This document shows, piece by piece, positions 8,278 to 24,105 of a DNA stretch of 34,074 bases (position 1 is its first letter; each line of letters starts with the position of its first letter). Source of the stretch: Candidatus Binatia bacterium. GTDB lineage: Bacteria > Desulfobacterota > Binatia > HRBIN30 > CADEER01. Made by a program: the position numbers and the translations under genes. The stretch is from positions 1-34,074 of the forward strand of contig JBOHWA010000449.1 in assembly GCA_050735855.1 (NCBI GenBank), read 5' to 3'. The notes below the pieces were generated by a model. That model ran no database searches and had not been told where the DNA came from. It worked only from the letters and a program-made list of their open reading frames with translations.

Positions 8278-8386
8278 GCGCGTCGGTACCTTGGGCGCGG
8301 AGTAACCGGTCGATACCGACGAGTCAAGGTGACGTGGGGCCCCTCCCTTTACTGCCGCAGCCCCCTCCCCTATCCTCCGGCTCCCG

Positions 8387-8581: not shown

Positions 8582-9516
8582 TGGCGATGAAGTGCACCCG
8601 CTGCAAGGCGCCCGGCGAGGTCCAGCTGCGCCAGCACAACGCCGGCTTCTGCCGCGACTGTTTCGTCTTCTACTTCCAGCGCCAGGTCGAGCGCGCGGTC
8701 GAGAAGGAGCGCATGTTCCATCTCGACGAGCCGGTGCTGGTCGCCGTCTCCGGCGGCAAGGACAGCCTGGCGCTGTGGGATGTGCTGCACACGCTCGGCT
8801 ACCAGACCACCGGGCTGCACCTGTCGCTCGGCATCGGCACGTACTCCGACATCTCGACCGAGAAGACCGTCGCCTTTGCGACCGCGCGCGGGCTGCCGCT
8901 GATCACCGTGCCGCTGAAGGACGAGGGCCGCTCGGTGCCGGAGATCACCGACTTCACCCATCGCCCCGCCTGCTCGGCGTGCGGCACGCTGAAGCGCCAC
9001 TACTTCGACCAGCTCGCCGTCGACCGCGGCTTCCCGGTGCTGGCCACCGGCCACAACCTCGACGACGAGGCGGCGCGGCTGCTCGGCAACGTGTTGCACT
9101 GGCAGATGGAGCATCTGGCGCGCCAGCGCCCGGTGCTCGAGCCGACGCACGACCGCTTCGTCCGCAAGGTGAAGCCGCTGTTCCGCATCAGCGAGTACGA
9201 GGCCGCGGTCTACTCCTTCTTCCGCGGCATCGACTACATCGTCGACGAATGTCCGAACGCCGCCGGGGCCACGCAGCTGCTCTACAAGGACATGCTCAAC
9301 CGGCTCGAGGCCGCCAGCCCGGGCAGCAAGCTCACCTTCGTGCAGGAGTTCCTGCACCGCGCCCAGCCCGGCATGCAGCCGACGACCCACGAGCCGCCGC
9401 AGACCTGCAGCGGGTGCGGCATGCCGGCGTACGGCGAGTTGTGCGGGTTCTGCCGGCTCATGCGCGAGACCGACACCAAGCGCGAACGGCGCCAGGCCGC
9501 CGCCGCGCGCCTCTGA
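8581..9516 (+). CDS. ttuA: tRNA 2-thiolation PP-loop ATPase, TtuA-like (tRNA-5-methyluridine54 2-sulfurtransferase family)
   Basis: PP-loop VAVSGGKDSLAL. N-terminal zinc-finger pattern CTRCKAPGEVQLRQHNAGFCRDCF. Central CSACG (Fe-S ligand position). C-terminal CSGCGMPAYGELCGFC. Only the last 311 codons of track ORF 6700-9516 are taken. Confidence 0.75.
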   Translation: MAMKCTRCKAPGEVQLRQHNAGFCRDCFVFYFQRQVERAVEKERMFHLDEPVLVAVSGGKDSLALWDVLHTLGYQTTGLHLSLGIGTYSDISTEKTVAFATARGLPLITVPLKDEGRSVPEITDFTHRPACSACGTLKRHYFDQLAVDRGFPVLATGHNLDDEAARLLGNVLHWQMEHLARQRPVLEPTHDRFVRKVKPLFRISEYEAAVYSFFRGIDYIVDECPNAAGATQLLYKDMLNRLEAASPGSKLTFVQEFLHRAQPGMQPTTHEPPQTCSGCGMPAYGELCGFCRLMRETDTKRERRQAAAARL

Positions 9517-9555
9517 CCCCACCCGACCGCGCCGTTCGCCCAGGTTCCGACATCC

Positions 9556-10455
9556 ATGAATGATCCCACGTCGTCCCGCGCCCTGCTCGCCGCCGGCGAC
9601 GCCCTGCTGTTCATCGACCGCAAGGAGCGCGAGTACATGCGCATCCTGCGCGCCGGCGCGCGCATGCACATCCGCAGTGGCTACCTGCTCGCCGACGACC
9701 TGATCGGCCAGCCGGAAGGGCGCGAGGTGCGCAACAGCGGTGGCGAGACGTTCATCATCCTGCGCCCGACCTATGCGACGCTGATCCCGAACCTGCCGCG
9801 CAAGGCGCAGGTCATCTACCCCAAGGACATCGGCCCGATCCTGCTGTGGGGCGACATCGGGCCGGGGATGCGCGTCTTCGAGGTCGGCACCGGCCCCGGC
9901 GCGCTCACTATCGCCATGCTGCGCGCCGTCGGCCCGACCGGCGAGGTGATCTCCTACGAGGTGCGTCCGGAGTTCATCGACATGGCGCGCGGCAACGTGG
10001 CGCAGTTCTTCGGCGCGGCGCCCAACTGGACGATCAAGCTGCGCGACATCGCCGACGGCATCGAGGAGCGCGATCTCGACCGCATGGTGCTCGATCTGGC
10101 CGAGCCGTGGGCGGTGCTGCCGGCGGCCGCCGCGGCGCTGCGTCCGGGTGGCGTGCTGGTCGCCTACGTCCCGACCGTCATGCAGGTGAAGCAGTTCGTC
10201 GACCAGGCACGCCTGTCGGGCTTCGGTGCCGTGCAATCGATGGAGACCCTGATGCGGACCTGGCACATCCAGGGCCTCAGCATTCGTCCCGACCATCGCA
10301 TGATCGCGCACACCGGCTTCATCACCGTCTGCCGCCGCATTCTCGCCGCGCCGCCGCTGGCCACGGCGGACGGGCTTGACGATGCCGACGGGGCGCTCGA
10401 GCCCGACGAGGGAACCGACGCCGACGACGCCGCCGGCGAACCGGTCGCAGATTGA
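9556..10455 (+). CDS. trmI: tRNA (adenine58-N1)-methyltransferase TrmI (GCD14 family)
   Basis: 299-aa ORF with QVIYPKDIGPILLWGDIGPGMRVFEVGTGPGALTIAML (SAM-binding GxGxG), then GEVISYEVRPEF and DRMVLDLAEPW, which is typical of TrmI/Gcd14. Confidence 0.85.
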   Translation: MNDPTSSRALLAAGDALLFIDRKEREYMRILRAGARMHIRSGYLLADDLIGQPEGREVRNSGGETFIILRPTYATLIPNLPRKAQVIYPKDIGPILLWGDIGPGMRVFEVGTGPGALTIAMLRAVGPTGEVISYEVRPEFIDMARGNVAQFFGAAPNWTIKLRDIADGIEERDLDRMVLDLAEPWAVLPAAAAALRPGGVLVAYVPTVMQVKQFVDQARLSGFGAVQSMETLMRTWHIQGLSIRPDHRMIAHTGFITVCRRILAAPPLATADGLDDADGALEPDEGTDADDAAGEPVAD

Positions 10456-11321: not shown

Positions 11322-11753
11322 ATGGCGGACACCCCGCAGAAGAAGGAAAGCGTACTGCCGGCGATCATCGGCTGGGGCGGCCTGGCCGTCTTCACCCTAT
11401 TTTTCGCCTGGATCGTCATCGCCCAGTTGCAGGAGACCGAGGAGTGGCAGAACCGCGGACCGGAAGCGGTGACGCTGGTGAAGACCTTCAAGCCCGACGG
11501 CGCAGACACGCTGGACGATCTCATCAAGGGGTATTCGCTCAAGGCGAAGGCGAAAGACGTCTACGTCGGCGAGTTCACCTGGGACGCCAAGCAGAAGGAA
11601 GGGCCCGAATACGAGGTGACGCTGCTCTACACCGAGGGGGCGAATCACCGCGTCGCCCTCTGGCGCGTCGACCTCGATCAGCAGAGCATCCGCCCGCAGG
11701 GCGACGACGCGGCCAACCTGCCGCAGCGCGCTCGCGACGGCATCGTCGACTGA
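11322..11753 (+). CDS. Hypothetical membrane-anchored protein
   Basis: 143-aa ORF preceded by GAGAAGGATAAG. It has one N-terminal TM segment (LPAIIGWGGLAVFTLFFAWIVIA) and a soluble domain with normal composition. I recognise no family. Confidence 0.5.
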   Translation: MADTPQKKESVLPAIIGWGGLAVFTLFFAWIVIAQLQETEEWQNRGPEAVTLVKTFKPDGADTLDDLIKGYSLKAKAKDVYVGEFTWDAKQKEGPEYEVTLLYTEGANHRVALWRVDLDQQSIRPQGDDAANLPQRARDGIVD

Positions 11754-11771
11754 CTCGCGGCCCCGACGCGC

Positions 11772-12458
11772 TCAACGGGCTCGGCGCGCGAGTGCGCTCA
11801 TCCGTCGGCGCCACATGACCGCCCGCTCGGCGTACGCCTGGACCAGGTACTCCGGGCAGGAATAGACGAAGTAGCGCGTCGCGATGATGATCAGCAGGAA
11901 GTCCTCGGCGCTCCTGGCGAAGTCCTTCGGCCGCGCCGCGGCCAGGTGGCCGTCGGGATTCAGGTCGTTCCTGATCACGCCGTAGATCAGCGCGACCAAC
12001 AGGAACAGCTTCGGCACCAGGCGTACGCCGCGCGAGAACAGCAGGCGTACGTACACATAGAGCATCATCGGTATGTAGGTCGCGAGGGCGCGGAAGCCCT
12101 CCTGCCGCCAGGCATCGAGCAGCGCGGTATCGGCCAGCGCGGTAGCGACGGCGAGCGCCAGATACGGGGCCGCCTGGCGCAGCCATTTCCTCCACCAGTT
12201 GGTCGCCTTGCCAAACATCCATCCGAGCGTCCTGAAGGATTGACGCATGACGGCGATGGCTGACTTGGCCGTCTGACCGATCTGTCGCTCGATCGGTTCG
12301 TCCTGGAGGGCGAAGCCAGTCGGCGGCCACGGGAGGCCGGCGGGCGCGGCCGCCCCGCGCGGGGACAGGTCCAGCGCGGCCATGGGCGCCGGCGTAAGGC
12401 TACTCGTCAGCGTGACCAGGATCGCGACGGCGACCGCAGCACGTCGGGCGCGCGGCAT
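11772..12458 (-). CDS. Hypothetical integral membrane protein
   Basis: I take ATG 12458 inside the 380-aa track ORF. This gives MPRARRAAVAVAILVTLTSSL (signal/TM), then hydrophobic helices (APYLALAVATALADTALL, LATYIPMMLYVYVRLLF, LFLLVALIYGVI). Family not recognised. Confidence 0.45.
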   Translation of the reverse strand: MPRARRAAVAVAILVTLTSSLTPAPMAALDLSPRGAAAPAGLPWPPTGFALQDEPIERQIGQTAKSAIAVMRQSFRTLGWMFGKATNWWRKWLRQAAPYLALAVATALADTALLDAWRQEGFRALATYIPMMLYVYVRLLFSRGVRLVPKLFLLVALIYGVIRNDLNPDGHLAAARPKDFARSAEDFLLIIIATRYFVYSCPEYLVQAYAERAVMWRRRMSALARRAR

Positions 12459-12680
12459 GCGCGCACCCTTCGCAATCCCTCCCAGCGAAGTCAAACCGTG
12501 CCGCACAGCGCCACCAGCGTCGCTGTAGGGACTGCCGGAGCGCGCCATATGCCATCGCTTTGACACAATTCTGCGACCCCTAGTGTCGTACGCCTGGAGA
12601 AACCCTGTGGCATATCGCTTGCTCAGATGCCTTGTCTGCTCGCCATCATGTGGGCGCGAAGGTTTGGAGGCGACGGAGGC

Positions 12681-12917
12681 ATGGACGACAATATGAGCGA
12701 TTTCATCCGACACCTGCGACGGCAATTGGGCATGACGCAGGAAGAGTTCGCCCATTCCCTGGGCATCACCGTCGGCACCGTCAACCGCTGGGAGAACGGC
12801 CGTTTCCGTCCGAGCAAGCTGGCGCGCTCGACGATTCTCGAGTTCGCACGCCGCCATGGGGTGACCGACGGCGAGGCGGCCGTGCCGCCGGCGAACGCAG
12901 ACAAGCCGGTCCACTGA
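12681..12917 (+). CDS. XRE-family helix-turn-helix transcriptional regulator
   Basis: ATG at 12681 is preceded by GGAGGCGACGGAGGC. IRHLRRQLGMTQEEFAHSLGITVGTVNRWENGRFRPS is a classic HTH_3 motif. Confidence 0.75.
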   Translation: MDDNMSDFIRHLRRQLGMTQEEFAHSLGITVGTVNRWENGRFRPSKLARSTILEFARRHGVTDGEAAVPPANADKPVH

Positions 12918-12951: not shown

Positions 12952-15372
12952 TCAGGGGGGCAGAACGCGAATGACGATGTTGGCCGGTGGTCCCGGCTGA
13001 CCGATGTTATCGAGCACCCGGGCCGTCAGCGTCGTATCGCCGAGCGGGAAGGCGAACTCCGCGCCGACCCCGGGGTTGGTGCAGAACTGGATGCGTGACG
13101 CCGGCGAGACGAAGCCGTCGACCTGGAAGTGATCGCGGGTACAGGCGACGGTCGACGCGCTGCGCACATCGAAACGGCAGCTCAGGTCATTGATCGCGTT
13201 GCTCACCGCTTGTGAGCCGCCGAAGACCGGCGGTGCGACGGCCGGCACGCCACCCACCACCTGGCTGGCGCCGGCGTCGCACACCACGGCGCTGCCGTTG
13301 CCAAGCGGCCGCGAGGTGACGATCTGGAAGTCCGGCAGGACGGCCGGATTGGTCGAATCGCTGTTGAACGTCTTCGTGCCAAGCGGCCGGCCGCTGATGC
13401 CGGGCTTGGCCTCGAAATAGATCAGAAAGCCGCTCGCCGGGCGCAGGAAGGTCGGATAGCCGAAATCGTTCGGGCCGATCGACGCGACCGGCAGCCCGTC
13501 GGCGCGGGCGACGCCGAACGCCGTGACCTCACCGCCGATGGTGCGGAAGGTGGGCGTCACCGTCGACGTCAGCACCGGCGTCCGGGTTGGCGTGGGCGTT
13601 CGCGACGGCGTCCAGGTGAGCGTCCGGGTCGCCGTCGCCGTACCGGTACGCGTCGGCGTCCCCGTGCGGGTCCCGGTCGCGGTGCCGGTCGCCGTCACCG
13701 TGCGGGTGGCGGTCGTCGTGCCGATCAGCGTCGGCGAGCGGCTCGGCGTGCGGGTAACCGACGCGGTGCTGGTCGCGGTGATGGTCGCCGTGGCGCTGGG
13801 GCTGCGGGTCGGGGTCGCGATCGCGGTGGCCGAGGCGGTCGCGGTTGCGGTGCGCGACGCGGTCGCCGTGGGCGTCGCGGTCACCGTCGCGCTGACCGTG
13901 CTGGTGCTGGAAGGCGAGTTGATCGCCGTGCGCGTGCGGGTCGCGGAGGCGGTGCTCGTCGCCACCGGCGTCGGCGAAATGAGCGGGGTCTTGCTGGCGG
14001 TCGCGGTGCGGGCCAGCGTCGGCGTCCGGGTCGGGCTGGCCGTGCGCGTCGACGTGCGCGTCCAGGTCGACGTCGGCATGGGTGTTACGGTCGCCGCGGG
14101 CGGGCCGGTGCGGGTCGGCGAGCTCGTTCGCGTCATGGTCGCGCTGCGCGTCGGGCTCGCCGTCCGAGTCGCCGTCGCCTGCACCGAGCCGGACGGCTGC
14201 GCCGTCGCCGTCGCGGTTCGCGTGCGGGTCGTGCTGCGCGTCGGGCTGGGCGTCGGGCTCGGACTGATGGTGCGGGTTGGGCTGGGCGGCACGACGCCAC
14301 CGGTGGCAGTGCGCGACGGCGTCGCGGTGCGGGTCGCGGTCGCGGTCCGACTCCCAGTCGCGCTGCGGGTGGCGCTGGCGGTGCGCGTGGCGGTCGGGGT
14401 GGCCGTGCCCTCCGGGGTCTCAACGGTCTGCACCTCCGTGGGCGTCAGCGTGCGGGTCGGGCGCGCCGTCGTCACCGGGGTCGGGGTGCGCGTCGGCGTC
14501 TCGGTGCGCGTTCCGGTGCGTGTCCGCGTCGAGGTGGGCCCCGCCGTGCCGGCTTCGGTCGGCGATGACAGCGGGGTCGCCGTCCTCGTCGCGGTCGCCG
14601 TCACTACGCCGGTCGCCGTCCTGGTTGCGGTCGCGGTCCTGCTGCCGGTCGCCGTCCTGGTCCCGGTCCTGGTCACAGTCGCTACCCGGGTCCCGGTCAC
14701 CGTCACCGTCACAGTCACAGTCGCGGTCGCGGCTTCAGACGGGGTGCGGACGGCTGACCCCGTCGGCACGGCCGTCGCGCTCGGCGTCGCTGACGCGGTG
14801 GCCGCCCCGGTGGGCGTTTCCACCGCAGTCGGCGTGGCGGTAACCGTGCCGGTCGGGGTCGCGTTGTCTGCCGGCGTCACGCTCGGCGTCGGCGACGGGC
14901 CCGTCGTCGCCGTCTCGTCCGGGGACGGGCTGACGCCCGCCGATGCCGTCGCCGTCGCGGTCGCCGTCGGAGCAAACGTTGCCGAGTGGCTCGCCGTCGC
15001 CGTCGGCGTCACCGCCGGCGTCACACTCGCCGTCGCGGTTGACGCCGCCGCGGTGGCACTGACGGTCGGAGTCGGTGCACCCGGGGCGCTGGCAGCGGCA
15101 CTGACATCCGCGGCGCTGACGGAGCCGTCGCCATTCGCATCACCGCACGCCTCGACGGCGCCAAAGAGGGCCCCCACCACCCGTTCGACCCGCACCACCC
15201 GTCCCAGCGCTTCGCACGCCCCTTGGGCCTGCACCGGCCCGGCGCGCCCCGCTACGACGCCCCAGGCGGCCGCAGCGACGATCCACGCCACCACACGGGC
15301 CGCACCAGACCCGACGCTCGGGGGCGTCAGGCCGCGTCGGGCCTGTGGATCGTTCGTACCTCGTGTAGACAC
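12952..15372 (-). CDS. Secreted giant protein TP1: signal peptide, dockerin-like Ca-loop, about 510-aa (T-x)n linker, about 200-aa C-terminal Cys domain
   Basis: The frame is open 12952-15600, but the upstream part overlaps the CheY gene. The first start after the CheY stop is GTG 15372 (VSTRGTNDPQARRGL...VVAWIVAAAAWGVVAGRAGPVQAQG). It contains CGDANGDGSVSAADV, a very long T/A/P/R/S/G low-complexity region, and a globular C-terminus paralogous to 21523-22132. Start is uncertain. Confidence 0.75.
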   Translation of the reverse strand: MSTRGTNDPQARRGLTPPSVGSGAARVVAWIVAAAAWGVVAGRAGPVQAQGACEALGRVVRVERVVGALFGAVEACGDANGDGSVSAADVSAAASAPGAPTPTVSATAAASTATASVTPAVTPTATASHSATFAPTATATATASAGVSPSPDETATTGPSPTPSVTPADNATPTGTVTATPTAVETPTGAATASATPSATAVPTGSAVRTPSEAATATVTVTVTVTGTRVATVTRTGTRTATGSRTATATRTATGVVTATATRTATPLSSPTEAGTAGPTSTRTRTGTRTETPTRTPTPVTTARPTRTLTPTEVQTVETPEGTATPTATRTASATRSATGSRTATATRTATPSRTATGGVVPPSPTRTISPSPTPSPTRSTTRTRTATATAQPSGSVQATATRTASPTRSATMTRTSSPTRTGPPAATVTPMPTSTWTRTSTRTASPTRTPTLARTATASKTPLISPTPVATSTASATRTRTAINSPSSTSTVSATVTATPTATASRTATATASATAIATPTRSPSATATITATSTASVTRTPSRSPTLIGTTTATRTVTATGTATGTRTGTPTRTGTATATRTLTWTPSRTPTPTRTPVLTSTVTPTFRTIGGEVTAFGVARADGLPVASIGPNDFGYPTFLRPASGFLIYFEAKPGISGRPLGTKTFNSDSTNPAVLPDFQIVTSRPLGNGSAVVCDAGASQVVGGVPAVAPPVFGGSQAVSNAINDLSCRFDVRSASTVACTRDHFQVDGFVSPASRIQFCTNPGVGAEFAFPLGDTTLTARVLDNIGQPGPPANIVIRVLPP
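13549..15090 (-). repeat. Low-complexity coding repeat encoding the alternating-threonine (T-x)n linker of TP1
   Basis: The translation is dominated by strings such as TRTGTRTATGSRTATATRTATGVVTATATRTATP and TGTATGTRTGTPTRTGTATATRT. It generates spurious V/R/G-rich ORFs on the opposite strand. Confidence 0.8.
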
Positions 15373-15407
15373 CTGCGCACCGGATGAGCAGGCTAAACCT
15401 TCGCTAA

Positions 15408-15791
15408 CTAGCCGCGGTTCAGCAAACGCTCCATCTTCGTGCGCACCACACTGAGGTCGACGATCGGCTTGGCCAGGTAGTCGTCGCACCCGGCCGCCAG
15501 TGCCTTCTGTTCGTCCCCCGCCATCGCCTGGGCCGTCAGAGCGATGATCGGGATGGTCTTGCCGAACTCGAGCTGGCGTATCTTCTTGGTCGCTTCCCAC
15601 CCGTCCATCACCGGCATCTTCAAGTCCATGAAGATCAGGTCAGGCGGCGGCGGCGTCTGAACGATCACCAACGCCTCTTCCCCGTTGCTCGCCTCGACGA
15701 TCTCGAACTCGCCGATCCGCTTCAGGCGGTAAACCAGGATGCGGCGATTGTCCAGGTTGTCTTCGACGACCAGAATACGCTTCGCTGCCAT
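15408..15791 (-). CDS. Single-domain CheY-like response regulator (receiver only)
   Basis: 127 aa: MAAKRILVVEDNLDNRRIL (acidic pocket DD-equivalent), DLIFMDLKMPVMDG (phospho-acceptor Asp), IIALTAQA and DDYLAKP (conserved Lys). There is no output domain. Confidence 0.9.
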   Translation of the reverse strand: MAAKRILVVEDNLDNRRILVYRLKRIGEFEIVEASNGEEALVIVQTPPPPDLIFMDLKMPVMDGWEATKKIRQLEFGKTIPIIALTAQAMAGDEQKALAAGCDDYLAKPIVDLSVVRTKMERLLNRG

Positions 15792-15852
15792 CCCTACCCT
15801 CGCGTCAACTCCCCTCGGCCGGAGTTACTCTCGTTTACCCGACCGACAGTCG

Positions 15853-15885
15853 AAAAAAAAGGCCGGAGTGGATGCCACTCCGGCC
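15853..15885 (-). terminator. Rho-independent terminator downstream of paralog A
   Basis: Perfect 11-bp stem GGCCGGAGTGG (15861-15871) / CCACTCCGGCC (15875-15885) with a 3-nt loop. On the minus strand it is followed by eight T (plus-strand A8 at 15853-15860). It lies about 30 nt after the stop at 15916. Confidence 0.85.
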
Positions 15886-15915
15886 TTCTGTCAGCTCAAC
15901 AGTTGTACTGCCCGG

Positions 15916-17217
15916 TCACGGCGGGGGCGGGACCGGATCGGGGAACACCGTGCGATACACGGCGTCGCCGCCTTCATGTGTCCCGCGTTGATCGAGGTTG
16001 AACGCCGTGGTGGCCAGAACCGGCCCACCGAGGACTTCGCGGTAGTTCTCGCACGCCACACCCAGCAGACCATAACCGAGCGGCCCGCCGGAACCCTGCA
16101 CGCCACGGATCCTTGTCTGACCCGCAATCGTGCCCTGGATGCCAACGGAGAAGATCGAAAACTCGTCGCCCGTCGGACCGCGCGCCGTATCGATGTCGGA
16201 CAACGTCGTGGCGCGGTAGCACTCGATACGCGCGGAGGTCGAGAAACGCTGCTCGAACTCGTTGTAGACCAGCATCTGGGCCAGCACTTCGAAGTTCGCC
16301 TGCACGTCCGGATCGCCGAGGGCCTCGCTGCACGGCACCAGCGTGAGGTCCGTGTTGACGACGCCGCCGATGTCCGTCTGCGCCCCTTCGAAGAAGTGGT
16401 TGAGCTTCAGCTCCGCCGGGCACGGTGCATAGGTGGCGGCGCAGTCGACATCGCTACCTGTCGGCGCCGCACCGAGGCACAGCGGATCGGCTGCTGCACC
16501 CGTTCCGACCTCGATCGTCTCGAAGCCGATGGCATTGTACGACGCCGCCGTCGTGGTGCCAGGATCCGAACCACCCGGCACCGTGGTCGACACGATCGTC
16601 GCCTCAACCTTGAGGTCGCTGCGCTCGACCGGGATATCGTTCTCGTCTACCTGAACGCACTTCAGCTCGCCACGGAACGGATCCTCGACGACGGCATCAA
16701 TGCCGCCATCCGCTATACCGCCAATGCACACCGGCGGCTCGTCAGGAGGGACCTCGCACGGGACGCCTGTCAAACCAGTCGACGCCAGGAAACCCAGCGG
16801 CTGTCCGGCAGTCAGTGTGACCGTGAAGTCGTTTACGCTCCAACCCGGGACACAGTTCAGCCCCGGTACACCTGCCGCGACACAGTCCGCATTGGTCTCG
16901 CAGATGATCCCGGTATCGGCACAGTGGCTGTTCGCGTTTACCCACCAGCAGTCGACCGTGATGAGATCGAGTTCGTTGGTGTTCGACAGCTGGATCAGCG
17001 TGTCGTACTGCTGCCCACCCGGCAGGACCGCTGGGGTTCCCCCCGTGGTGTGCACCATGATCTTCGGCAGCACGACATAACCGCCCGTCAAATCCGACGC
17101 GGCGCCGAGCGTAGACTGTGCCCGCACCCCACCAGCCGAGCAGATCAGCACAAGTGCCGCAACCAAGCCGATACCGAGCAAGCGGCTGGTGCTTCCCTTG
17201 GCATTCACCGTAAGCAT
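15916..17217 (-). CDS. Secreted cysteine-containing protein, paralog A of an unassigned family
   Basis: ATG 17217 is preceded by AAGGAG. Signal peptide LLGIGLVAALVLICSAGGVRA-QS. It shares seven ordered motifs with B, C and D (for example VVLPKIMV, TLIQLSN, DFTVTLTAGQPLGF, FRGELKCVQVD, SYNAIGF, LTLVPC, LVYNEFEQRFSTS). The track ORF start at 17307 would overlap paralog B. Confidence 0.85.
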   Translation of the reverse strand: MLTVNAKGSTSRLLGIGLVAALVLICSAGGVRAQSTLGAASDLTGGYVVLPKIMVHTTGGTPAVLPGGQQYDTLIQLSNTNELDLITVDCWWVNANSHCADTGIICETNADCVAAGVPGLNCVPGWSVNDFTVTLTAGQPLGFLASTGLTGVPCEVPPDEPPVCIGGIADGGIDAVVEDPFRGELKCVQVDENDIPVERSDLKVEATIVSTTVPGGSDPGTTTAASYNAIGFETIEVGTGAAADPLCLGAAPTGSDVDCAATYAPCPAELKLNHFFEGAQTDIGGVVNTDLTLVPCSEALGDPDVQANFEVLAQMLVYNEFEQRFSTSARIECYRATTLSDIDTARGPTGDEFSIFSVGIQGTIAGQTRIRGVQGSGGPLGYGLLGVACENYREVLGGPVLATTAFNLDQRGTHEGGDAVYRTVFPDPVPPPP

Positions 17218-17270
17218 CTCGTCACTCCTTTCCGTGCCTGAGCGAGCGCGCATGGCGTCCTCCTGACCCC

Positions 17271-18383
17271 TTACGGCAACCGAATTTCGGAGTTGAAGGA
17301 AGGACAACCTGGAGGATCCGCATCATCCGTGCAGAAATGGAGGTTGGTCGCCGCCGTGTCCGACGAGCCGTCTCCAGCCGTGCGCAGCACATTCGCGACA
17401 CCCAGGACGGGGGCCAGACCCGGTCCGATCGGCGTCACGATCGCCTTGCCGAACGTGGTCTGCAGACCCGCCTCGGTCATCACGAACGGCGGGCCGAGAT
17501 CGCCGATGAGCGATTCGAACCAACAATCCACGAGGACCGGGGAAATCGATCTGTTGACCTCAAACTCGTTGCGGATCGCGAAGGTCACAGCCGTTTCCTC
17601 GGGCTCGAGATTCTCGAAGTCGATGGCGCACGGGATGAACGTCAGGCTGGTGCTGACCACCGAAGGGCTGTTGCCCGCCAGCGCGATCGCCGGATCTTCT
17701 GCGCCATCGCCGATGAAGTTCACATAAAGGCCGCCGGGGCAGGCCGCGTACTCGACCCCATTGAGCGACAGGACGTTGTCCAGGTTGTTGGTGCCGCTGG
17801 TCGGCCCGCACAGACCTGGATTGCCCATCGCCATCCCGTTGCCGTTGCAGGACGGGATGCCGATCGCGTTGTACTTGCTGACGTTGTTGGTCCCACCCAG
17901 GGTGGTGATATCCCCGATGGTGGCCTGTCCGGTCAGGCTGTTGCTGCCCATCGGCGTTCCGTCGAGGGCCGTTTCAACGCAGACCAGGAAGCCGGTGAAG
18001 CCCGGCGGAACCGGAGGAACCAGACCCGGGTCAAACCCGCGATCTCCGTCCTGCGGATTGACCGCACGACCGTCGCTCGCCGACCAGGTGGTCGGCTGCT
18101 GACGGGTCAGCGAGATTTCGAAGTCGGTGACCTGCCAGGCAGGCTGGCCGTTCACCGGTCGACCGTCGGTGTAGAAGCAGTGCGCATGCACCACGTTGTT
18201 CGACACGTTCGAAATCTGAATGATGGTGTTCGGATTGGTATTCACCACCTTCGGGAAGATCAGGATCGATCCCGGTCGTTCCGTACTGAAGTTCCCTTGC
18301 GCGCTGACCGTTCCGGCCGCAAGCGTCATCCCGAGCAGGACGCCTGCGATCACACCGGCTCGCAGCCCCTTCACCGTACTCAT
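17271..18383 (-). CDS. Secreted cysteine-containing protein, paralog B of the same family (shortest, lacks Cys-rich inserts)
   Basis: ATG 18383 is preceded by AAGGAGGAG. Signal peptide GVIAGVLLGMTLAAGTVSA-QG. Motifs: ILIFPKVVN, TIIQISN, DFEISLTRQQPTTW, FTGFLVCVETA, KYNAIGI, LTFIPC, AIRNEFEVNRS. It ends ...NSEIRLP. Confidence 0.85.
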   Translation of the reverse strand: MSTVKGLRAGVIAGVLLGMTLAAGTVSAQGNFSTERPGSILIFPKVVNTNPNTIIQISNVSNNVVHAHCFYTDGRPVNGQPAWQVTDFEISLTRQQPTTWSASDGRAVNPQDGDRGFDPGLVPPVPPGFTGFLVCVETALDGTPMGSNSLTGQATIGDITTLGGTNNVSKYNAIGIPSCNGNGMAMGNPGLCGPTSGTNNLDNVLSLNGVEYAACPGGLYVNFIGDGAEDPAIALAGNSPSVVSTSLTFIPCAIDFENLEPEETAVTFAIRNEFEVNRSISPVLVDCWFESLIGDLGPPFVMTEAGLQTTFGKAIVTPIGPGLAPVLGVANVLRTAGDGSSDTAATNLHFCTDDADPPGCPSFNSEIRLP

Positions 18384-18451
18384 GGGTTCTCCTCCTTCAT
18401 AAGGACACGCGCTCCAGAGTCCGACTCAAGTCCCCTCACCCACGCGTCGGA

Positions 18452-19606
18452 CTAGGGAATCCGGATGAAGTCCGGGTGGTCGCGATCGGCGAACTGATTC
18501 AGATTGTAGGCTGCACCCGAATCGACCAGACCGGTCGCGTCGCATCCGGTCACGTCGCAGAACGAGAGGCTGGCTGCCCCGATGAGGCCGCCGTTGACGC
18601 CGGTGATACGGGTCTGACCCGCCACCGTGCCGGAGACACCCGCGTTGAAGATCGACCGTGCAGGCTGCGTGGTATCGATGCGTGAGATCGGGCGGTCGAG
18701 CAGGCAGTCGACCGGCTGACTGGTCGAGAAGCGCTGTTCGAACTCGTTGTAGACCAGGAACTGCGCTGTCACACGGGGGACCTGCTGCTGGAGGAAGTCC
18801 TCGGTGCAGGGCACCAGGCTGAGCTCCGACTGCGCCCGATAGATCCCCGAGATCGGGTCGACCGCGTTGTCAAACAGGTGGTTGAAAACCAGAACTTGGG
18901 CGCAGGGCTGATACTCGGGCTCGTCCTCGCCACCGATGACCAACTCCGCGTCGCCATTGTTGAATCCGTTGCTGCGCAGGCCCACGGCGTTGTACTTGCG
19001 CGTATCGATGATGCCGAGCTCAACCTTGGTGATCGTCGCGGCGCCTTCGAGGTCGTCGCGGCAGCCATTGCCAGTGCATTCGAACGGCAGGCGCGTGATC
19101 GGATCGACCTGGATGCACTTGAGCTCGCCGACGAACGGCGTCTCGCCAACGGGCGGGATGCCGGTGCCTGCGTTGGTGCCAATCCCCTGGGTGCAGCGAT
19201 TGCCGAACCCGCCCTTGCACGGCAGGTCGCTCTGCCCCAGGCCCGCCTCGGCGCTCCAGCCGAGCGGCTGGTTGGAGGTCAGGATGATGTCGAAGTTGAT
19301 CTCGATCCAGCCCGCCTGACAGGAGCCGAAGAAACCGGTGTCGTCCTGGCAATCGAGCGAGTTCTCGCAAACTTCGCCTGTGTTGGTGCAGCGATTGTTC
19401 GCGTTGACATAGAAGCAGTGTGCCGCCGTCGGCTGCGGCGCCTGGTTGGTGAGCTGCAACACAGTGTCGCGCCCATCGTCGACGACGATCTTCGGCCATA
19501 CCACGATCGCCGCACCGGTATCCGAGTAGGTGAATGCGTGTGCCATCGGCGCCATCAGCAGGCTGACCGCGGCCCCCAGCAAACTCAAAGTCTTATTCGT
19601 CAGCAT
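18452..19606 (-). CDS. Secreted cysteine-containing protein, paralog C of the same family
   Basis: ATG 19606 is preceded by GGAGAGAAGGAGAAGG. The track start at 19645 is a GTG abutting the stop of D (TGA at 19642-19644). Signal peptide LSLLGAAVSLLMAPMAHA-FT. Motifs: IVVWPKIVV, TVLQLTN, NFDIILTSNQPLGW, FVGELKCIQVD, KYNAVGL, LSLVPC, LVYNEFEQRFSTS. It ends ...PDFIRIP. Confidence 0.85.
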   Translation of the reverse strand: MLTNKTLSLLGAAVSLLMAPMAHAFTYSDTGAAIVVWPKIVVDDGRDTVLQLTNQAPQPTAAHCFYVNANNRCTNTGEVCENSLDCQDDTGFFGSCQAGWIEINFDIILTSNQPLGWSAEAGLGQSDLPCKGGFGNRCTQGIGTNAGTGIPPVGETPFVGELKCIQVDPITRLPFECTGNGCRDDLEGAATITKVELGIIDTRKYNAVGLRSNGFNNGDAELVIGGEDEPEYQPCAQVLVFNHLFDNAVDPISGIYRAQSELSLVPCTEDFLQQQVPRVTAQFLVYNEFEQRFSTSQPVDCLLDRPISRIDTTQPARSIFNAGVSGTVAGQTRITGVNGGLIGAASLSFCDVTGCDATGLVDSGAAYNLNQFADRDHPDFIRIP

Positions 19607-19641
19607 CGCCCTTCTCCTTCTCTCCATCCGCGCGGGCCGGG

Positions 19642-21147
19642 TCACTGCTCAATAACGGTGACAGGGTCCGGTGTGAACCGGATCTCGTCGTTCATGCACC
19701 GGTCGCAGAAGTCGCCTACGCCCAGGCAGCCGCCATCATCCGTGCACGCGGTCCCGGCGACGCGGCAGAGCCCCGTCGGGCATGCGCCGGCGACGCAACC
19801 GCTGCCGGTGCAGCTCGTATCACTGGAGCAGGTCGTCGTGGTGATCGCACCGCGGCAACTACCGAGACGGCCGTTGTCGCCGTCGCCGTTGACATCGACC
19901 GAGTAGCCGTTGGCGGCGTTGGTGCCCGCTTGAGCGGAAGACATGACGGCCAGCGTGACGTCGCTCTCGTGGAACTCTTCGACGATCGACAGGATGCCAC
20001 TCGGCGGCGCGCAGACACCATTGTCGCCGCACTGAGCATCCGTCGAGCAGGGCGTGTTGACCTCGTCGTCGTCGCCCGCGATGCAGAGGCCGGTGCCGGC
20101 CGGGTTGATGCGGGTGCGCTGGAACGTGCTGCCGCCGAGATTGGAGAAGCCGAGATTCTCGAGCGTGAAGGTCACCCCGCAGGTAAAGGGCCGCTCGACC
20201 GACAGGCGCGACTCGAACTCATTGTGGTAGACGATGTCGACTTGGAAGCGGGTCGGGATCTCGTTTTCGAAATCGTAGCGGCAGGGGATGACCGTAATCT
20301 CGGTCGTCACCGGGCAGCCCGACGTCGCGCAGGCGGCGGGACTGATCGCACCGGCGACCAGATCGTTCGCCCCCGGCGAGTAGTTGGTGAACTCGACGCT
20401 CTCGGGGCAGGCGTTGTAGCCTGTCGCCGTGCTGTTCAGCTCGATGTACTCGGCCGGATCGGGATCGACGGTACCGAGGACGTTGATCGAGTTGTACTCG
20501 CTGATCTGCGTCGAGCCGAGCGTCTCGATGATCGCTTCGCCCTTCAGGCCGTTGGACGGCATCGGAGTGCCGTCCGCTGCGACCTGGATGCAGCGCAGGT
20601 TGCCGTAGAACGGCTGCACCGGCGGCACCACCTGGCCAACCAGGAAGAAGCCCGGGCATTCCTGCCGCGGCGGCACACCGGGGATCAGATCGCAGGAGCC
20701 ATCGGCCGGAAGGGCCGGATTGTAGATACGACCGGTCGACACACGCCAGATCGTGGGCTGTTGGCGGGTGAGGATCACATCGAAGTCCAACGTCGCGCAC
20801 GGCTCATCGGGGTTGAGCCCCAAGACGCACACATCAGAGGGACCACCCGGACAGGCCGGCGCGCTGAACACCGCCGACTCGCTCGGCAGCGTGCAGTGCT
20901 GCTGGCTGAGCGAGCAGATGCCGATCGAGTTGGTGTACTCGCAATGCGCGTACGCGGTCTCGTTGCGGGTATTGGTCAGCGTGATGAGGGTGTCGCGCGT
21001 CCCATCCGCCACTACCTTCGGCCAGATCACCACGGAACCAGGTCGATCCGACGTCGTATCCGCCGCCGCCTGCGTTGCCCCCAGCGCCATGGCCGCCAGC
21101 ATCACTCCCAGGCTATAAAGCCACGGGTTTCGCTTCTGCACTCGCAT
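19642..21147 (-). CDS. Secreted cysteine-rich protein, paralog D of the same family, with an extra C-terminal Cys-rich extension
   Basis: ATG 21147 is preceded by AAGGAGG. Signal peptide LYSLGVMLAAMALGATQAAA-DT. Motifs: VVIWPKVVA, TLITLTN, DFDVILTRQQPTIW, FYGNLRCIQVA, EYNSINV, ITVIPC, IVYHNEFESRLS. The last 147 aa, from CIAG (20085), include the inserts CIAGDDDEVNTPCSTDAQCGDNGVC and DVNGDGDNG...CSSDTSCTGSGCVAGACPTGLCRVAGTACTDDGGC. Confidence 0.85.
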   Translation of the reverse strand: MRVQKRNPWLYSLGVMLAAMALGATQAAADTTSDRPGSVVIWPKVVADGTRDTLITLTNTRNETAYAHCEYTNSIGICSLSQQHCTLPSESAVFSAPACPGGPSDVCVLGLNPDEPCATLDFDVILTRQQPTIWRVSTGRIYNPALPADGSCDLIPGVPPRQECPGFFLVGQVVPPVQPFYGNLRCIQVAADGTPMPSNGLKGEAIIETLGSTQISEYNSINVLGTVDPDPAEYIELNSTATGYNACPESVEFTNYSPGANDLVAGAISPAACATSGCPVTTEITVIPCRYDFENEIPTRFQVDIVYHNEFESRLSVERPFTCGVTFTLENLGFSNLGGSTFQRTRINPAGTGLCIAGDDDEVNTPCSTDAQCGDNGVCAPPSGILSIVEEFHESDVTLAVMSSAQAGTNAANGYSVDVNGDGDNGRLGSCRGAITTTTCSSDTSCTGSGCVAGACPTGLCRVAGTACTDDGGCLGVGDFCDRCMNDEIRFTPDPVTVIEQ

Positions 21148-21220
21148 TGCACGCCTCCTTTCGAGTAACTGCACCCTTTGCGCACGGGGGCTATCGCGTG
21201 TCCCCTTGAACGCGGAAAGC

Positions 21221-21249
21221 CTTATTGCAATTTGATGCCGCACTGTCAA
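21221..21249 (-). promoter_or_regulatory. Candidate sigma70-type promoter for the D-C-B-A operon
   Basis: The minus strand reads CTTGACA-GTGCGGCATCAAATTGC-AATAAG. This is a perfect -35 TTGACA (plus 21244-21249), a 17-nt spacer, a TGC extended element and a 4/6 -10 AATAAG (plus 21221-21226). It lies about 70 nt upstream of ATG 21147 in an AT-richer intergenic region. Pattern match only. Confidence 0.3.
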
Positions 21250-21522
21250 GCGGAAAAGCGAGAGATGCAGCGGCGCGCGTTATTGCTGCGGGCTCGGGTC
21301 GCTTCTGCCACTTGATCATCGGTTCCGTCCTCCCTCGGACACGCCCCTTCGCGGTGCTCGGACGTCACACGCACGGTATATGCCACAAAGGAACGGGCCT
21401 GGGAACTGAATTTTGCTCAACCCCAAAGGTGTGTGCCGTGTTGCAAAAACGGCAGACCGTCAAGCCGGCGTGGCGCGGCCCGACTCCATTTGATGTCCCT
21501 GGCACTATTCCTGAGGGAGCCC

Positions 21523-24105
21523 TCAGGGTTGGACGCGGACGACGATTTCCTTCTTCGGGCCGAGATTGCCGGCCGTATCGCGCAGTTGGATGGCGATCAC
21601 CGTGTCCTCGTCGCCGAACTGGCCGGTGGTTGGCACCTGGTAGCAGTACTGCATGCGGGTTGAGGCGGGCACGACATAGCTGAAGTTGCCGAAGCTATTG
21701 CGCGTGCAGGCGAGATCGCTGGTGGTCTGCAGCGTGAAGCGGCAGGCCATGTCCTGAATCGCGTTGGTCGTCGCGCTGCCGCCGCTGAAGTCGATCGGGC
21801 TTGCCGGCACGCCGCCGAACGGCGTCGGTGGCGGCCCCATGTCGCACTTCGCCGGGCTGCCGTTGCCCGTCGCCTTGCTGACGACCACCTGGAGGTCGCC
21901 GCGATCCTGGCATTGAGGGAAGAGACAGGTGCCGGGATTGAGGTTCGAGGTGCCGCGACGGCCTTCGACGACGAACAGGAAGGTCCCGGTCGAACGGATG
22001 AACACCTCGCGGCCGAACTCGTCGATCAACGGCGTTGGCGTCGGCGTCAGCTGACAGAGGAACTCGCAACAGAAGGGGCAGCCGTCCTGCGAGATCACGC
22101 CGGCGTAGTTGACCCGTGCACCGATCTCGTTCGACGTCGGCGTCGGCGTGCGCGTGATCGTCGGGGTCAAGGTGATCGTCCCGGTAAAGGTCGGCGTGCG
22201 CGTCCGGGTCGGCGTGCGCGTGATGGTCGGGGTGCGGGTGGGCAGCGGTGTGAAGCTGCTGGTGGCGGTGAGCGCCGGCGCCGTCGTGCGCGTCGCCGTG
22301 CGCGTCGGCGTCGCGGTCACGGTGCGGCTCGGGGTGAACGAGAGGACCGGGGTCAGGGTGAAGCTTGCCGTCTGAGTGACCGAGGCCGTGCGCGTCGGCG
22401 TCGCGGTGCGCGTCTCCGTACTGGTACGCGTCGCACTCAGCGTCGGCAGCGGCGTCCCGGTACCCGTCGCCGTGCGGGTCGGCGTGGCCGTGCGCGTCTC
22501 GGTGGCCGTGCGCGTTCCCGTCTCGGTGAAGGTGGCGGATCCGGTCGGCGCGGCGCTGCGCGTCGGCGATGGACTGCGCGTATCGGTCGGTGCCAGGGTG
22601 GGGCTGGCCGTGTGCGACGGCGTGCCGGTGAACGTGATGGTACGCGTTGGGCTCTCGGTGACGGTCAAGGGCGGCGTGGCGGTCAAGGGCGGCGTGGCGG
22701 TGGCGGTGCCGGTGCGCGTCGCCGAAGCGGTCGGCGACTCCGTACTGGTGCGCGAGGACGTCTGCGTGAAGCTGGGCGTCGTCGTGCGCGTCGGCGTCAG
22801 CGTGAAGCTGGCCGTCACGGTCGACGTGGGCGGCACCGGGGTCCGCGTGGGCGTCTCGGTGCGCGACGGGGTCAGCGTGCGCGTGACGGTTTCGCTCGGC
22901 GCGACCGTCTGGGTCGGCGGAGCGGTCGCGGTGCGCGTCGGCGTCAAGGTGAACGGGGGTGTCAGGGTAGACGTCGGCGTCCGCGTGCTGCTGCTGGTCG
23001 CGGTCGAGGCGGCGGTCGGCGCACCACTCGGGGTCATCGACGGCGTCGCGCTGCGCGTCACCGTGCGGGTGAATGTCCCGGTGCGCGTGGTGGTCGGCGG
23101 TGCACCGGGCGTGTGGGTCCGCGTCGGGCTCCCCGTCCGCGTGGCGGTCGCGGGCGGCTGATCGGTGGGTACCGGCGTCGCCGTGCGCGTCGCCGTGCCG
23201 GTGCGCGTCGCGGTGCCGGTGAGGGTTGCGGTGCCGGTGCGCGTTGCGGTGCCGGTGCGCGTCGGCGTCAGCGTCGGCAGCAAGGTGCCGGTGCGCGTCG
23301 GCGTCACCTCCTCCGCGGTCCTGGTTGCCGTCGCCGTACCCGTGCGCGTCGCGGTGCTCGTACGCGTCGCAGTGCCCGTCTGCGTCGCGGTGCGGGTGCG
23401 CGTCGCGGTTCCAGTCAGCGGTGGCACGGACGGCGTCGGCGTCGCGCTCGGGTCAGTCGGCGTCGGCGTCGGACTGTTGTCCGGGGTCGGCGTCGCCGTC
23501 CCGGTCTCGGTCGCGAGAGGCGAGGGCGAGATGCTGTGGGTCACCGTCGGTGTCGATCCATCGCTCGTCGGAGTCACCGTGCCGGTCGCCGTCGCCGTGG
23601 GCTCGACTGTCGCCGTGGGCTCGACCGTCGCCGTGGGCTCGACCGTCGCCGTGGGCTCGATCGTCGGGGTTGGTGTCTCGGGAGAGACAGTCGGCGTCGG
23701 ACTCGACACCGCGGTCAGGGTGGCGGTCGGCGTCGCGGGGCTCGTGGAAGAGGGCGAGACACTGGCGGTCGCCGTCGCAGTAGCAGTCGGCGTGGCGGAC
23801 GAGGTGCTGGTCGAAGAGGGCGTGCCGACGGGCGTCGGGGTTGGGTCAGCCACCAGCGCACGCGCCAGGGCGACCAGATCCGCGGCGCTGAGGCGCTGGT
23901 CCTCATTGACGTCAGCGCTGGCGCAGCCGCTCCCCGCAAACAGGGCGCCCTCGAGGGCCGGGACATCGAGCCCGTTCGTCGCCCCGTCGCAGTTGGTATC
24001 GCCCGCCAGACCCTGGGCAGGGGCGCTGCCAGCGGCCAGCAGCACCATCAATCCAGCGAAAACGACAGATGCTCGGCCCCGCAGTCGGTGCACACGCCCC
24101 CTCAT
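21523..24105 (-). CDS. Secreted giant protein TP2: signal peptide, two-segment dockerin-like module, about 570-aa (T-x)n/PT linker, about 200-aa C-terminal Cys domain
   Basis: ATG 24105 gives MRGRVHRLRGRASVVFAGLMVLLAAGSAPAQG (alternatives 24129 and 24156). Two dockerin-like Ca loops: DTNCDGATNGLDVPALEGALF and DVNEDQRLSAADLVALARALV. A long T/P/A/R/S/G low-complexity region follows. The C-terminal domain is paralogous to TP1 (TNAIQDMACRF vs SNAINDLSCRF; ACTRNSF vs ACTRDHF; IVVRVQP vs IVIRVLPP). Confidence 0.8.
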   Translation of the reverse strand: MRGRVHRLRGRASVVFAGLMVLLAAGSAPAQGLAGDTNCDGATNGLDVPALEGALFAGSGCASADVNEDQRLSAADLVALARALVADPTPTPVGTPSSTSTSSATPTATATATASVSPSSTSPATPTATLTAVSSPTPTVSPETPTPTIEPTATVEPTATVEPTATVEPTATATGTVTPTSDGSTPTVTHSISPSPLATETGTATPTPDNSPTPTPTDPSATPTPSVPPLTGTATRTRTATQTGTATRTSTATRTGTATATRTAEEVTPTRTGTLLPTLTPTRTGTATRTGTATLTGTATRTGTATRTATPVPTDQPPATATRTGSPTRTHTPGAPPTTTRTGTFTRTVTRSATPSMTPSGAPTAASTATSSSTRTPTSTLTPPFTLTPTRTATAPPTQTVAPSETVTRTLTPSRTETPTRTPVPPTSTVTASFTLTPTRTTTPSFTQTSSRTSTESPTASATRTGTATATPPLTATPPLTVTESPTRTITFTGTPSHTASPTLAPTDTRSPSPTRSAAPTGSATFTETGTRTATETRTATPTRTATGTGTPLPTLSATRTSTETRTATPTRTASVTQTASFTLTPVLSFTPSRTVTATPTRTATRTTAPALTATSSFTPLPTRTPTITRTPTRTRTPTFTGTITLTPTITRTPTPTSNEIGARVNYAGVISQDGCPFCCEFLCQLTPTPTPLIDEFGREVFIRSTGTFLFVVEGRRGTSNLNPGTCLFPQCQDRGDLQVVVSKATGNGSPAKCDMGPPPTPFGGVPASPIDFSGGSATTNAIQDMACRFTLQTTSDLACTRNSFGNFSYVVPASTRMQYCYQVPTTGQFGDEDTVIAIQLRDTAGNLGPKKEIVVRVQP
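22133..23840 (-). repeat. Low-complexity coding repeat encoding the (T-x)n / PT linker of TP2
   Basis: The translation contains TGTATRTRTATQTGTATRTSTATRTGTATATRT, TGTATRTGTATLTGTATRTGTATRTATP and many xPTxT units. It generates spurious R/G-rich and V/G-rich ORFs in other frames. Confidence 0.8.
23591..23662 (-). repeat. Four tandem copies of an 18-bp unit (encodes EPTATV x4) inside TP2
   Basis: Plus strand: GTCGCCGTGGGCTCGACT / GTCGCCGTGGGCTCGACC / GTCGCCGTGGGCTCGACC / GTCGCCGTGGGCTCGATC at 23591, 23609, 23627 and 23645. Units differ only at the last two positions. Confidence 0.9.

Follow-up and report, generated by a model that had tools for sequence, protein, structure and literature searches.

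The window analysed here is a 34,074-nt stretch (contig JBOHWA010000449.1, positions 1-34,074, assembly GCA_050735855.1) of Candidatus Binatia bacterium with a G+C content of ~69%. It carries an 11-kb stretch in which four paralogous secreted proteins (A-D) and a CheY-type receiver are encoded together with two long Thr-rich proteins (TP1 and TP2), at least one of which has features of a dockerin. The host class, Binatia (Binatota), comprises widespread uncultured soil and sediment bacteria, the cell surface of which is undescribed. The order of the genes is TP2, D, C, B, A, receiver, TP1, and coordinates of the open reading frames (ORFs) confirm that all seven are on the minus strand. Against Pfam and NCBIfam, the seven proteins matched only Response_reg and, at the borderline, Dockerin_1. 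All the evidence presented below is computational and comes from this one class of uncultured bacteria. The features of the locus are as follows:

21523-24105, minus strand: TP2, 860 aa, with signal peptide, dockerin, (T-x)n linker and a predicted C-terminal Cys-rich beta-sandwich domain (from the ORF and the architecture of orthologues)
23854-24006, minus strand: dockerin module of TP2 (aa 34-84; Ca loops DTNCDGATNGLD and DVNEDQRLSAAD, Cys pair conserved)
22126-23838, minus strand: TP2 (T-x)n linker, 571 aa (from Thr composition and periodicity)
21526-22125, minus strand: TP2 C-terminal domain, ~200 aa (from homology to the TP1 C-domain and an AlphaFold2 (AF2) model)
21371-21416, minus strand: upstream elements, GCAAAATnCAGTT and a sigma-54-like TGGCAT-N5-GTGC (from intergenic alignment of orthologues)
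21220-21249, minus strand: promoter-like element of D-C-B-A, TTGACA, 17 nt, AATAAG (invariant block in 9 genomes)
19642-21147, minus strand: paralog D, predicted member of a secreted two-beta-sandwich family, with a Cys-rich C-terminal extension
18452-19606, minus strand: paralog C, 384 aa (from the ORF, homologues and an AF2 model)
17271-18383, minus strand: paralog B, 370 aa, without the Cys-rich insertion loop
15916-17307 (ORF; probable start ~17217), minus strand: paralog A (from the ORF and paralog alignment)
15853-15885, minus strand: intrinsic terminator ending D-C-B-A (invariant hairpin and T run)
15408-15791, minus strand: CheY-like single-domain receiver, 127 aa (Pfam Response_reg)
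12952-15372, minus strand: TP1, 806 aa, with signal peptide, apparent one-loop dockerin remnant, (T-x)n linker and C-domain
15088-15216, minus strand: apparent one-loop dockerin remnant of TP1 (aa 53-95; 9 invariant columns in orthologues)
13540-15066, minus strand: TP1 (T-x)n linker, 509 aa (from Thr composition and periodicity)
12955-13539, minus strand: TP1 C-domain (from alignment to the TP2 C-domain)

Domains of the TP proteins and the paralogs

The N-terminal region of TP2, which a preliminary description of this DNA had called dockerin-like, is by profile and motif evidence a genuine dockerin. As a whole, TP2 reaches 22.1 bits with Pfam Dockerin_1 (PF00404), just under the threshold of 22.9 bits; with the N-terminal 102 residues taken by themselves, the score rises to 31.3 bits (E 2.4e-7), and TP2-type N-termini match the same model in 31 of 35 orthologues (best 2e-13). 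Consistently, the top 18 matches of a TP2 N-terminus profile in the PDB are all dockerins. The loops and their helices (DTNCDGATNGLD...ALF and DVNEDQRLSAAD...LARAL) form two tandem Ca-loop/helix segments, with D, N and D columns that are invariant across the 35 TP2-type orthologues. The corresponding region of TP1 had been described as a pair of loops, the first of them degenerate. A Ca-loop region is indeed present, but it holds a single loop, GDANGDGSVSAAD, preceded by a helix and accompanied by a conserved Cys pair; 9 columns, including the Cys pair and the loop, are invariant in 19 TP1-type orthologues. The best PDB match of the TP1 profile is the dockerin 4fl4 (E 1.1e-4), over the second half of the dockerin only, which suggests that the module is a one-loop dockerin derivative. 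Paralog D had been thought to share the Ca-loop module through a DVNGDGDNG loop. The protein has no dockerin or EF-hand match in Pfam, and the loop is absent from all six distinct orthologues checked, which carry AFNGSLERSG or a similar sequence instead; it is therefore probably a chance resemblance.

Both TPs share the domain order first proposed (signal peptide, Ca-loop module, (T-x)n linker and C-domain), although at 806 and 860 aa they are long rather than giant. Signal peptides of the Sec type were recognised by eye in all six structural proteins (TP1, TP2 and A-D). The linkers exceed 500 aa in both TPs, as had been claimed, and are made of degenerate 18-nt tandem repeats encoding a strict T-x alternation, often with Arg: Thr makes up 35% of the TP1 linker and 37% of the TP2 linker, recurring at i+2 in 63% and 72% of cases but at i+1 in only 3% and 2%, respectively. 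This composition is of the Thr/Pro/Ser-rich low-complexity spacer type, for which glycosylation is predicted only.

Public gene calls split TP2 and read its linker on the opposite strand, yielding products such as VAVRVGV..., and wrong-strand calls of this kind lie inside linkers both in the window (22126-23838 and 13540-15066) and in a related locus (L001, 5261-7606 and 14415-15854). The Thr-rich frame might accordingly be taken for an untranslated artefact, with the opposite-strand ORFs chosen by the gene callers as the real genes; that strand is also open, with high G+C at third codon positions. However, the homologous TP frames are open in 57 of 57 cases from ~30 genomes (54 full-length ones of 443-1065 aa and 3 truncated where the contig ends), with an overall Thr share of 15-30%, and nearly all of the full-length copies retain recognisable in-frame N- and C-terminal domains. 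Furthermore, in relatives a single ORF joins a dockerin-like module to a TP-type C-domain via a short linker, whereas the opposite-strand products lack conserved ends. The open frames, the retained domains and the single-ORF relatives led us to reject the opposite-strand ORFs as real genes; an artefact is extremely improbable, and by this comparative evidence the TP reading frame is real. Because of the opposite-strand ORFs called inside the linker, the TPs are represented in the protein database by C-terminal pieces only: the matches measure 123-392 aa, and no full-length TP is among them. Wrong-strand calling of (T-x)n linkers is thus a systematic annotation error, and surveys of domain architecture may have missed the dockerin link for this reason.

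The C-domains of TP1 and TP2 are 35% identical (E=1e-29), which bears out the claimed paralogy and the conserved C-terminal domain. An AF2 model of the TP2 C-domain has a mean predicted local distance difference test (pLDDT) score of 86.8. No match to it above a template modelling score (TM-score) of 0.33 was found in the PDB with Foldseek, and the domain has no Pfam, NCBIfam or PDB sequence-profile match. Judged from the model, it is a new beta-sandwich domain family. A relationship of the C-domain to the paralogs was considered and rejected (hhalign probability at most 0.5%). TP2-type C-domains start with a conserved four-Cys motif, DGCPFCCEFxC, which is absent from TP1-type and fusion-type C-domains; the model is of low confidence in this region, for which a metal site and a disulfide knot are both conceivable.

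Paralogs A-D are 30-41% identical in pairwise comparison and share 41 invariant columns, including 6 Cys residues and an NEFExxxS motif, as well as a nearly invariant His. Paralog C has 784 homologues, all of them unnamed and without a Pfam domain; the metagenome-assembled genomes (MAGs) in which homologues of the family occur are named Candidatus Binatia or bear older labels of the Deltaproteobacteria type. An exhaustive profile search extended the family to 1,547 clusters at 50% identity, and no relative was found in Pfam, NCBIfam or PDB sequence profiles. The AF2 model of paralog C (pLDDT 89.7) consists of two beta-sandwich domains, for which Foldseek retrieved from the PDB arrestin, Vps26, CfaE and ClfB, all weakly (probabilities 0.1-0.4, TM-scores at most 0.17); one of the domains resembles TM1070, with a TM-score of 0.72 relative to the target. 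According to this model, A-D are a new family of two beta-sandwich domains.

Conservation and transcription of the locus

In a scan of GTDB representative genomes, 80 paralog loci were mapped by tblastn. The arrangement TP-D-C-B-A-CheY on one strand recurs in ~30 of them, all from Binatia, and the TP C-domain is encoded directly upstream of D in 29 of the 29 class-1 loci with upstream DNA. Homologues of the TP C-domain are also found beside the four-paralog operon in five NCBI locus-tag pairs, and the most divergent ones (P0182 and P0168) have the same four-paralog context. TP1 follows the CheY gene in 18 loci, those of the closer relatives, whereas 8 more distant genomes have no TP1 there but two or three tandem TPs upstream instead. 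TP adjoins D even where the upstream flank differs, and its copy number varies in place. The ~47 remaining loci contain tandem B-like/C-like pairs without TP or CheY. Other paralog clusters, with one to three such pairs (L020-L083), lie in conserved housekeeping contexts; their neighbours, TopA, TrmFO and IlvE upstream and TolQ/TolR-like genes downstream, offer no functional clue.

Conserved signals divide the locus into transcription units. Both the promoter and the terminator of the paralog operon had been missed by a consensus scan and were found by aligning orthologous intergenic regions. TTGACA, a 17-nt spacer and AATAAG (21220-21249) form a block that is invariant in 9 genomes, ~70 nt before the start of D; in relatives the -10 hexamer is GATAAG, preceded by TGC. 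Between this block and the D start codon lie a conserved leader and an AAGGAGG ribosome-binding site, and the conserved site and ATG fix the start of D at 21147. The listed ORF start at 21249 is instead the TTG of the TTGACA box. Directly after A, GGCCGGAGTG..CACTCCGGCC followed by a T run forms a terminator invariant in 8 genomes (15853-15885; folding energy -28.9 kcal/mol, z -6.5). In view of the conserved promoter and the invariant terminator, D-C-B-A constitutes a transcription unit of its own, and TP2 and CheY-TP1 are, on the same sequence evidence, units separate from it; the gap between CheY and TP1 measures 35 nt. The earlier picture of TP2 immediately adjoining the operon therefore holds for the gene order only, a gap of ~375 nt with the conserved promoter separating TP2 from D. 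Likewise, TP1 and TP2 do bracket the operon and the CheY gene, but the invariant terminator intervenes between A and CheY. The perfect -35 box, the consensus ribosome-binding site, the strong terminator and the lower G+C content of D-C-B-A (63-65% versus ~70% in the flanks) would fit highly expressed structural genes.

Between TP2 and the sigma-70-like promoter of D there is also a sigma-54-like element, TGGCAT-N5-GTGC (21371-21385), with correct -24/-12 spacing and a core unchanged in 7 of 9 aligned genomes; a GCAAAAT motif upstream of it (GCAAAATnCAGTT) is slightly more variable than this core. Near a related paralog cluster (L089) there is a gene for a sigma-54 activator.

The CheY-like protein is a receiver without an output domain (Response_reg at aa 6-110 of 127, E 5.5e-25). 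Its sequence shows the acidic pocket (E10/D11), the Thr, the Lys and, within FMDLKMP, the acceptor Asp. Identity across loci is 74-98% for the receiver, compared with 31-69% for the proteins encoded next to it. Although its gene is rigidly conserved in position as well as in sequence, it may be no more than a neighbour without a mechanistic tie to the secreted proteins.

The preliminary description had read the 11-kb stretch as one functional locus. Comparison of gene neighbourhoods agrees with this: homologues of the TPs and of the paralogs do co-occur elsewhere, a TP stands beside the paralog operon in every inspectable neighbourhood, and four gene fusions (see below) join the two. Inherited gene order could in principle suffice, the TPs being generic mucin-like surface proteins, A-D unrelated to them, and the dockerin merely a Ca-stabilised fold. 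Indeed, housekeeping flanks (5-formyltetrahydrofolate (5-FTHF) ligase, TrmI, DprA-like) are conserved in the same loci, TP2, D-C-B-A and CheY-TP1 are separate transcription units, and many paralog loci have no TPs. The downstream housekeeping flank of TP loci is syntenic as well, the upstream flank only in close relatives. However, simple inheritance does not account for four independent fusion architectures linking the paralog domain with the TP C-domain, for TP remaining beside D despite a changed upstream flank and a varying copy number, or for the complementary cohesin genes at a second paralog locus. We accord it little likelihood.

Cohesins, gene fusions and flanking genes

Dockerins call for cohesins, and these are found at another paralog locus. 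In 9 TP-free genome loci, two genes precede a B/C pair on the same strand, 0.3-1.9 kb away; in L076, a nucleotide-sugar dehydrogenase-like gene intervenes before the paralog pair. The first encodes a protein of 930-1000 aa that contains PD40 repeats and Cys-rich repeats and, between two dockerin-like modules, a cohesin beta-domain. The product of the second, of 320-550 aa, has a signal peptide, a cohesin beta-domain, a (T-x)n linker and a tail in which a Cys motif is followed by a hydrophobic helix and an Arg cluster. The gene pair is located at:

L076 2996-6816; L039, L056, L059, L064, L066, L079, L081, L083, L091, L093, L097: cohesin gene-pair loci

A single sequence of the cohesin beta-domain had no match in Pfam. 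Its profile (A7) has 16 PDB matches, all of them cohesins, the best being 6kgc (2.7e-10) over the full length (positions 2-148 to 5-148), and the database homologue P0335 carries PF00963. By these profile comparisons, the beta-domains of the anchor proteins are genuine cohesins. A TP locus is also present in the source genomes of six of the nine cohesin loci, and a seventh MAG (VL049) has both. When metagenomes were scanned from the cohesin side, with a narrower cohesin alignment, 7 loci were recovered, and paralog genes were located ~2.2 kb downstream in all four with enough DNA. The tripartite tail is visible in 9 cohesin proteins. A Cys motif, a transmembrane segment and an Arg cluster are the tripartite design of MYXO-CTERM-type sorting signals (10.1101/2023.06.07.544157; PMC11980579); these and related Cys-containing C-terminal signals are processed by myxosortases (PMC11980579; 10.1101/2023.06.07.544157).

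The preliminary description had looked for the cohesin-like partner among the paralogs or in the Cys-containing C-domain. A self-contained locus of this kind, in which the TP dockerins bind A-D or the TP C-domain as a non-canonical cohesin within the 11 kb, would explain why no cohesin is encoded in the window or in any of the TP loci scanned. It would also suit the constant adjacency of TP and A-D, the predicted beta-sandwich folds of both candidates and the position of a dockerin-like module between the two in fusion proteins. Profile comparison nonetheless gives hhalign probabilities of only 0.1% (paralogs) and 0.5% (C-domain) against the cohesin profile, which led us to discard both as hidden cohesins, and no cohesin is among the top 50 Foldseek matches of either the paralog C or the TP2 C-domain model. 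tblastn also matched the cohesin weakly to the TP C-domain, which profile comparison did not confirm. Moreover, a dockerin covalently fused to its own partner would be unusual, and true cohesins exist at another paralog locus in genomes that have TPs. A partner within the locus is hence improbable.

The strongest evidence that TPs and paralogs work together comes from gene fusions, surveyed among the best 150 representatives of the paralog family. In four proteins (P0299, P0318, P0324 and P0208), a paralog domain is joined to a Cys-bracketed dockerin-like module and, through a short Pro/Thr linker, to a C-domain of the TP type, which the C-domain profile (A6) recognises at E 1e-38 to 1e-50. 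In P0294, a paralog domain is followed by a Thr-rich linker, FG-GAP repeats and a Pfam Dockerin_1 module (36.3 bits), and in P0251, P0278 and P0331 by DUF4215-type Cys-rich repeats and then EF-hand/dockerin-like loops, which were recognised either as EF-hand fragments in Pfam or through a motif pattern. The P0318 fusion gene, from a Binatia MAG, is preceded by a B-like gene, as are the fusion genes in L084 and L090. In L085, GT2 and PMT_2 genes follow a row of four tandem paralog genes that ends with a dockerin-fused one.

Some of these fusions raise the question of whether the paralogs are enzymes, acting on an extracellular polymer or glycoprotein as dockerin-borne cellulosome enzymes do, with the TPs serving as adaptors or binding subunits instead of holding a structural coat. 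P0294 is laid out like a cellulosomal enzyme (cargo, linker, C-terminal dockerin), in P0305 and P0314 a family member is fused to enzyme-like beta-propeller domains, polar positions (NEFExxxS) are invariant throughout the family and the His nearly so, and sugar-nucleotide and glycosyltransferase genes lie nearby. Yet the family matches no enzyme family in Pfam, NCBIfam or the PDB, and its best fold likenesses, all weak, are the non-enzymatic two-sandwich proteins arrestin, Vps26, CfaE and ClfB. Catalytic cargo is, in our estimate, unlikely.

Two genes near the locus deserve mention because of their position:

11772-12458, minus strand: 228-aa membrane-like protein after TP1 (from tblastn conservation; module membership uncertain)
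26814-29147, minus strand: PMT_2-family glycosyltransferase with PA14 domain (from Pfam; link to TP linkers tentative)

The 228-aa protein has hydrophobic segments and no match in Pfam or NCBIfam; in most class-1 loci, tblastn places its gene on the same strand after TP1, or after CheY if TP1 is absent. A PMT_2 gene occurs near the locus in close relatives only, the copy in the window being the one with PA14; on the unrelated contig L085, PMT_2 and GT2 genes (11509-12912) directly follow the dockerin-fused paralog gene. The PMT_2 enzyme is a possible glycosylation enzyme for the TP linkers, by tentative association. Diderm housekeeping functions occupy both flanks, one of which comprises LpxI, LpxA, BamA, LolCDE-like genes, LysS, TrmI and 5-FTHF cyclo-ligase, and the other a DprA-like gene, a metallophosphoesterase, the PMT_2/PA14 glycosyltransferase, an acyl-CoA ligase and short-chain dehydrogenases/reductases. 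The LysS frame (minus strand, 6763-10311) is open for ~700 codons before its OB and class II synthetase domains (aa 739-1178) and overlaps a well-supported plus-strand TrmI gene; ~1.3 kb (roughly 8270-9550) has no assigned gene. Rfam and tRNA scans of the window found nothing.

A putative cohesin-dockerin assembly and its known counterparts

We propose, giving it an even chance of being right, that the locus is the split form of a Binatia-specific, non-cellulosomal cohesin-dockerin extracellular assembly. The TP dockerins would plug, with Ca2+, into the cohesins of proteins encoded elsewhere in the genome, the partner presumably being laid out as a cohesin, a (T-x)n stalk and a Cys/transmembrane/Arg sorting tail; the proteins with PD40 repeats and a cohesin between two dockerin-like modules may also join the assembly. 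Such docking would fix the TPs to the cell surface, their putative location, with the (T-x)n stretch serving as an extended, probably O-glycosylated stalk. The C-domain at the other end might act together with A-D, either holding them or acting on the same target, because relatives carry the paralog domain, the dockerin-like module and the TP C-domain in one chain. A-D would then be associated cargo or partners, probably as B-like/C-like hetero-pairs, and adhesion, substrate capture and a surface coat are candidate end uses of the assembly.

Several observations weigh against this proposal. No cohesin accompanies the TPs at the loci scanned, as noted above, and near ~38 of the 80 paralog loci there is neither a dockerin nor a cohesin nor a Thr-rich gene. 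TP1 itself has no Pfam dockerin match, and only one of its 19 orthologues does, at 0.0027. The cohesin tails score 15.2 and 14.5 bits against the MYXO-CTERM model TIGR03901, below its threshold of 20, and the Cys-bracketed module of the fusions matches generic EF-hand pairs as well as a dockerin, so that its dockerin label is provisional. Since synteny extends to the housekeeping flanks, conserved gene order is by itself weak evidence, and with a single uncultured class and syntenic flanks the number of independent events is small (two locus types and the fusions). Finally, the signal peptides were recognised by eye and the glycosylation is putative, and the proposal does not account for export across the outer membrane.

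A bolder form of the cohesin-dockerin proposal, possible but rather doubtful, would make the assembly an undescribed surface organelle of Binatia, in which lipid-anchored cohesin stalks capture dockerin-tipped stalks that present or tether hetero-oligomers of the lineage-specific two-beta-sandwich family: a non-enzymatic, cellulosome-like structure in a diderm. If true, the contour length of the stalks would reach up to ~190 nm, and two new domain families would be involved in a function (adhesion, particle or substrate capture, or cell coat) without known counterpart. More generally, the two families are sizeable, one of them with ~1,500 clusters at 50% identity, and lack a Pfam model or a solved relative. 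Moreover, gene order and fusion link a dockerin protein, its likely cohesin anchors and a cargo family, so that the interaction is directly testable with recombinant modules.

Among known systems, the cellulosomal type I cohesin-dockerin pairs (Clostridium thermocellum; PF00404, PF00963) provide the closest parallel for the individual modules. Like these, TP2 has a duplicated Ca-loop/helix module above the Pfam threshold, and the systems are alike in surface-anchored cohesins, Thr/Pro-rich linkers and adaptor-like proteins with both modules. In contrast to cellulosome producers, the Binatia host is a diderm of an uncultured class, the TP dockerin is N-terminal with a conserved Cys pair, the linker alternates strictly and exceeds the cellulosomal ones in length 10-20 times, a Cys/transmembrane/Arg tail takes the place of an S-layer homology domain or a sortase signal as the anchor, and the putative cargo consists of two uncharacterised beta-sandwich families. 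No domain of a glycoside hydrolase, carbohydrate esterase, polysaccharide lyase or carbohydrate-binding module was found in the proteins of the locus or in the scanned proteins of related loci. Among these proteins the make-up of a cellulosome is lacking: there is neither a dockerin-borne carbohydrate-active enzyme nor a scaffoldin with a carbohydrate-binding module.

Non-cellulosomal cohesin- and dockerin-like modules were reportedly catalogued across bacteria and archaea by Peer et al. in FEMS Microbiol Lett in 2009, but, to our knowledge, have almost never been tied to a partner or cargo. The Binatia modules resemble the catalogued ones in occurring in organisms without cellulosomes and in proteins of unknown role, and differ from them in being tied to a conserved gene set, to fusions and to a specific cargo family. 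No paper came up in a literature search that combined Binatia or Binatota with dockerin or cohesin.

Three further comparisons concern the linkers, the tails and the folds. Pro/Thr-rich linkers of secreted enzymes in Actinobacteria are O-mannosylated by PMT-family enzymes; the TPs likewise have a Thr-rich low-complexity spacer between folded modules and a PMT_2-family gene nearby, whereas their T-x alternation is strict over >500 residues and the PMT_2 gene is not consistently linked. The Binatia cohesin proteins share with MYXO-CTERM proteins the Cys-containing motif, hydrophobic helix and Arg cluster at the C-terminus, but their tail is sub-threshold (15.2 versus 20 bits) and is found on the putative partner, not on any protein of the window. 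A-D, lastly, have the overall two-sandwich layout of adhesins and adaptors such as CfaE, ClfB, arrestin and Vps26, without sequence relation and with the low Foldseek probabilities and TM-scores given above, and the only solved structure well matched by a paralog domain is TM1070, itself a protein of no known function.

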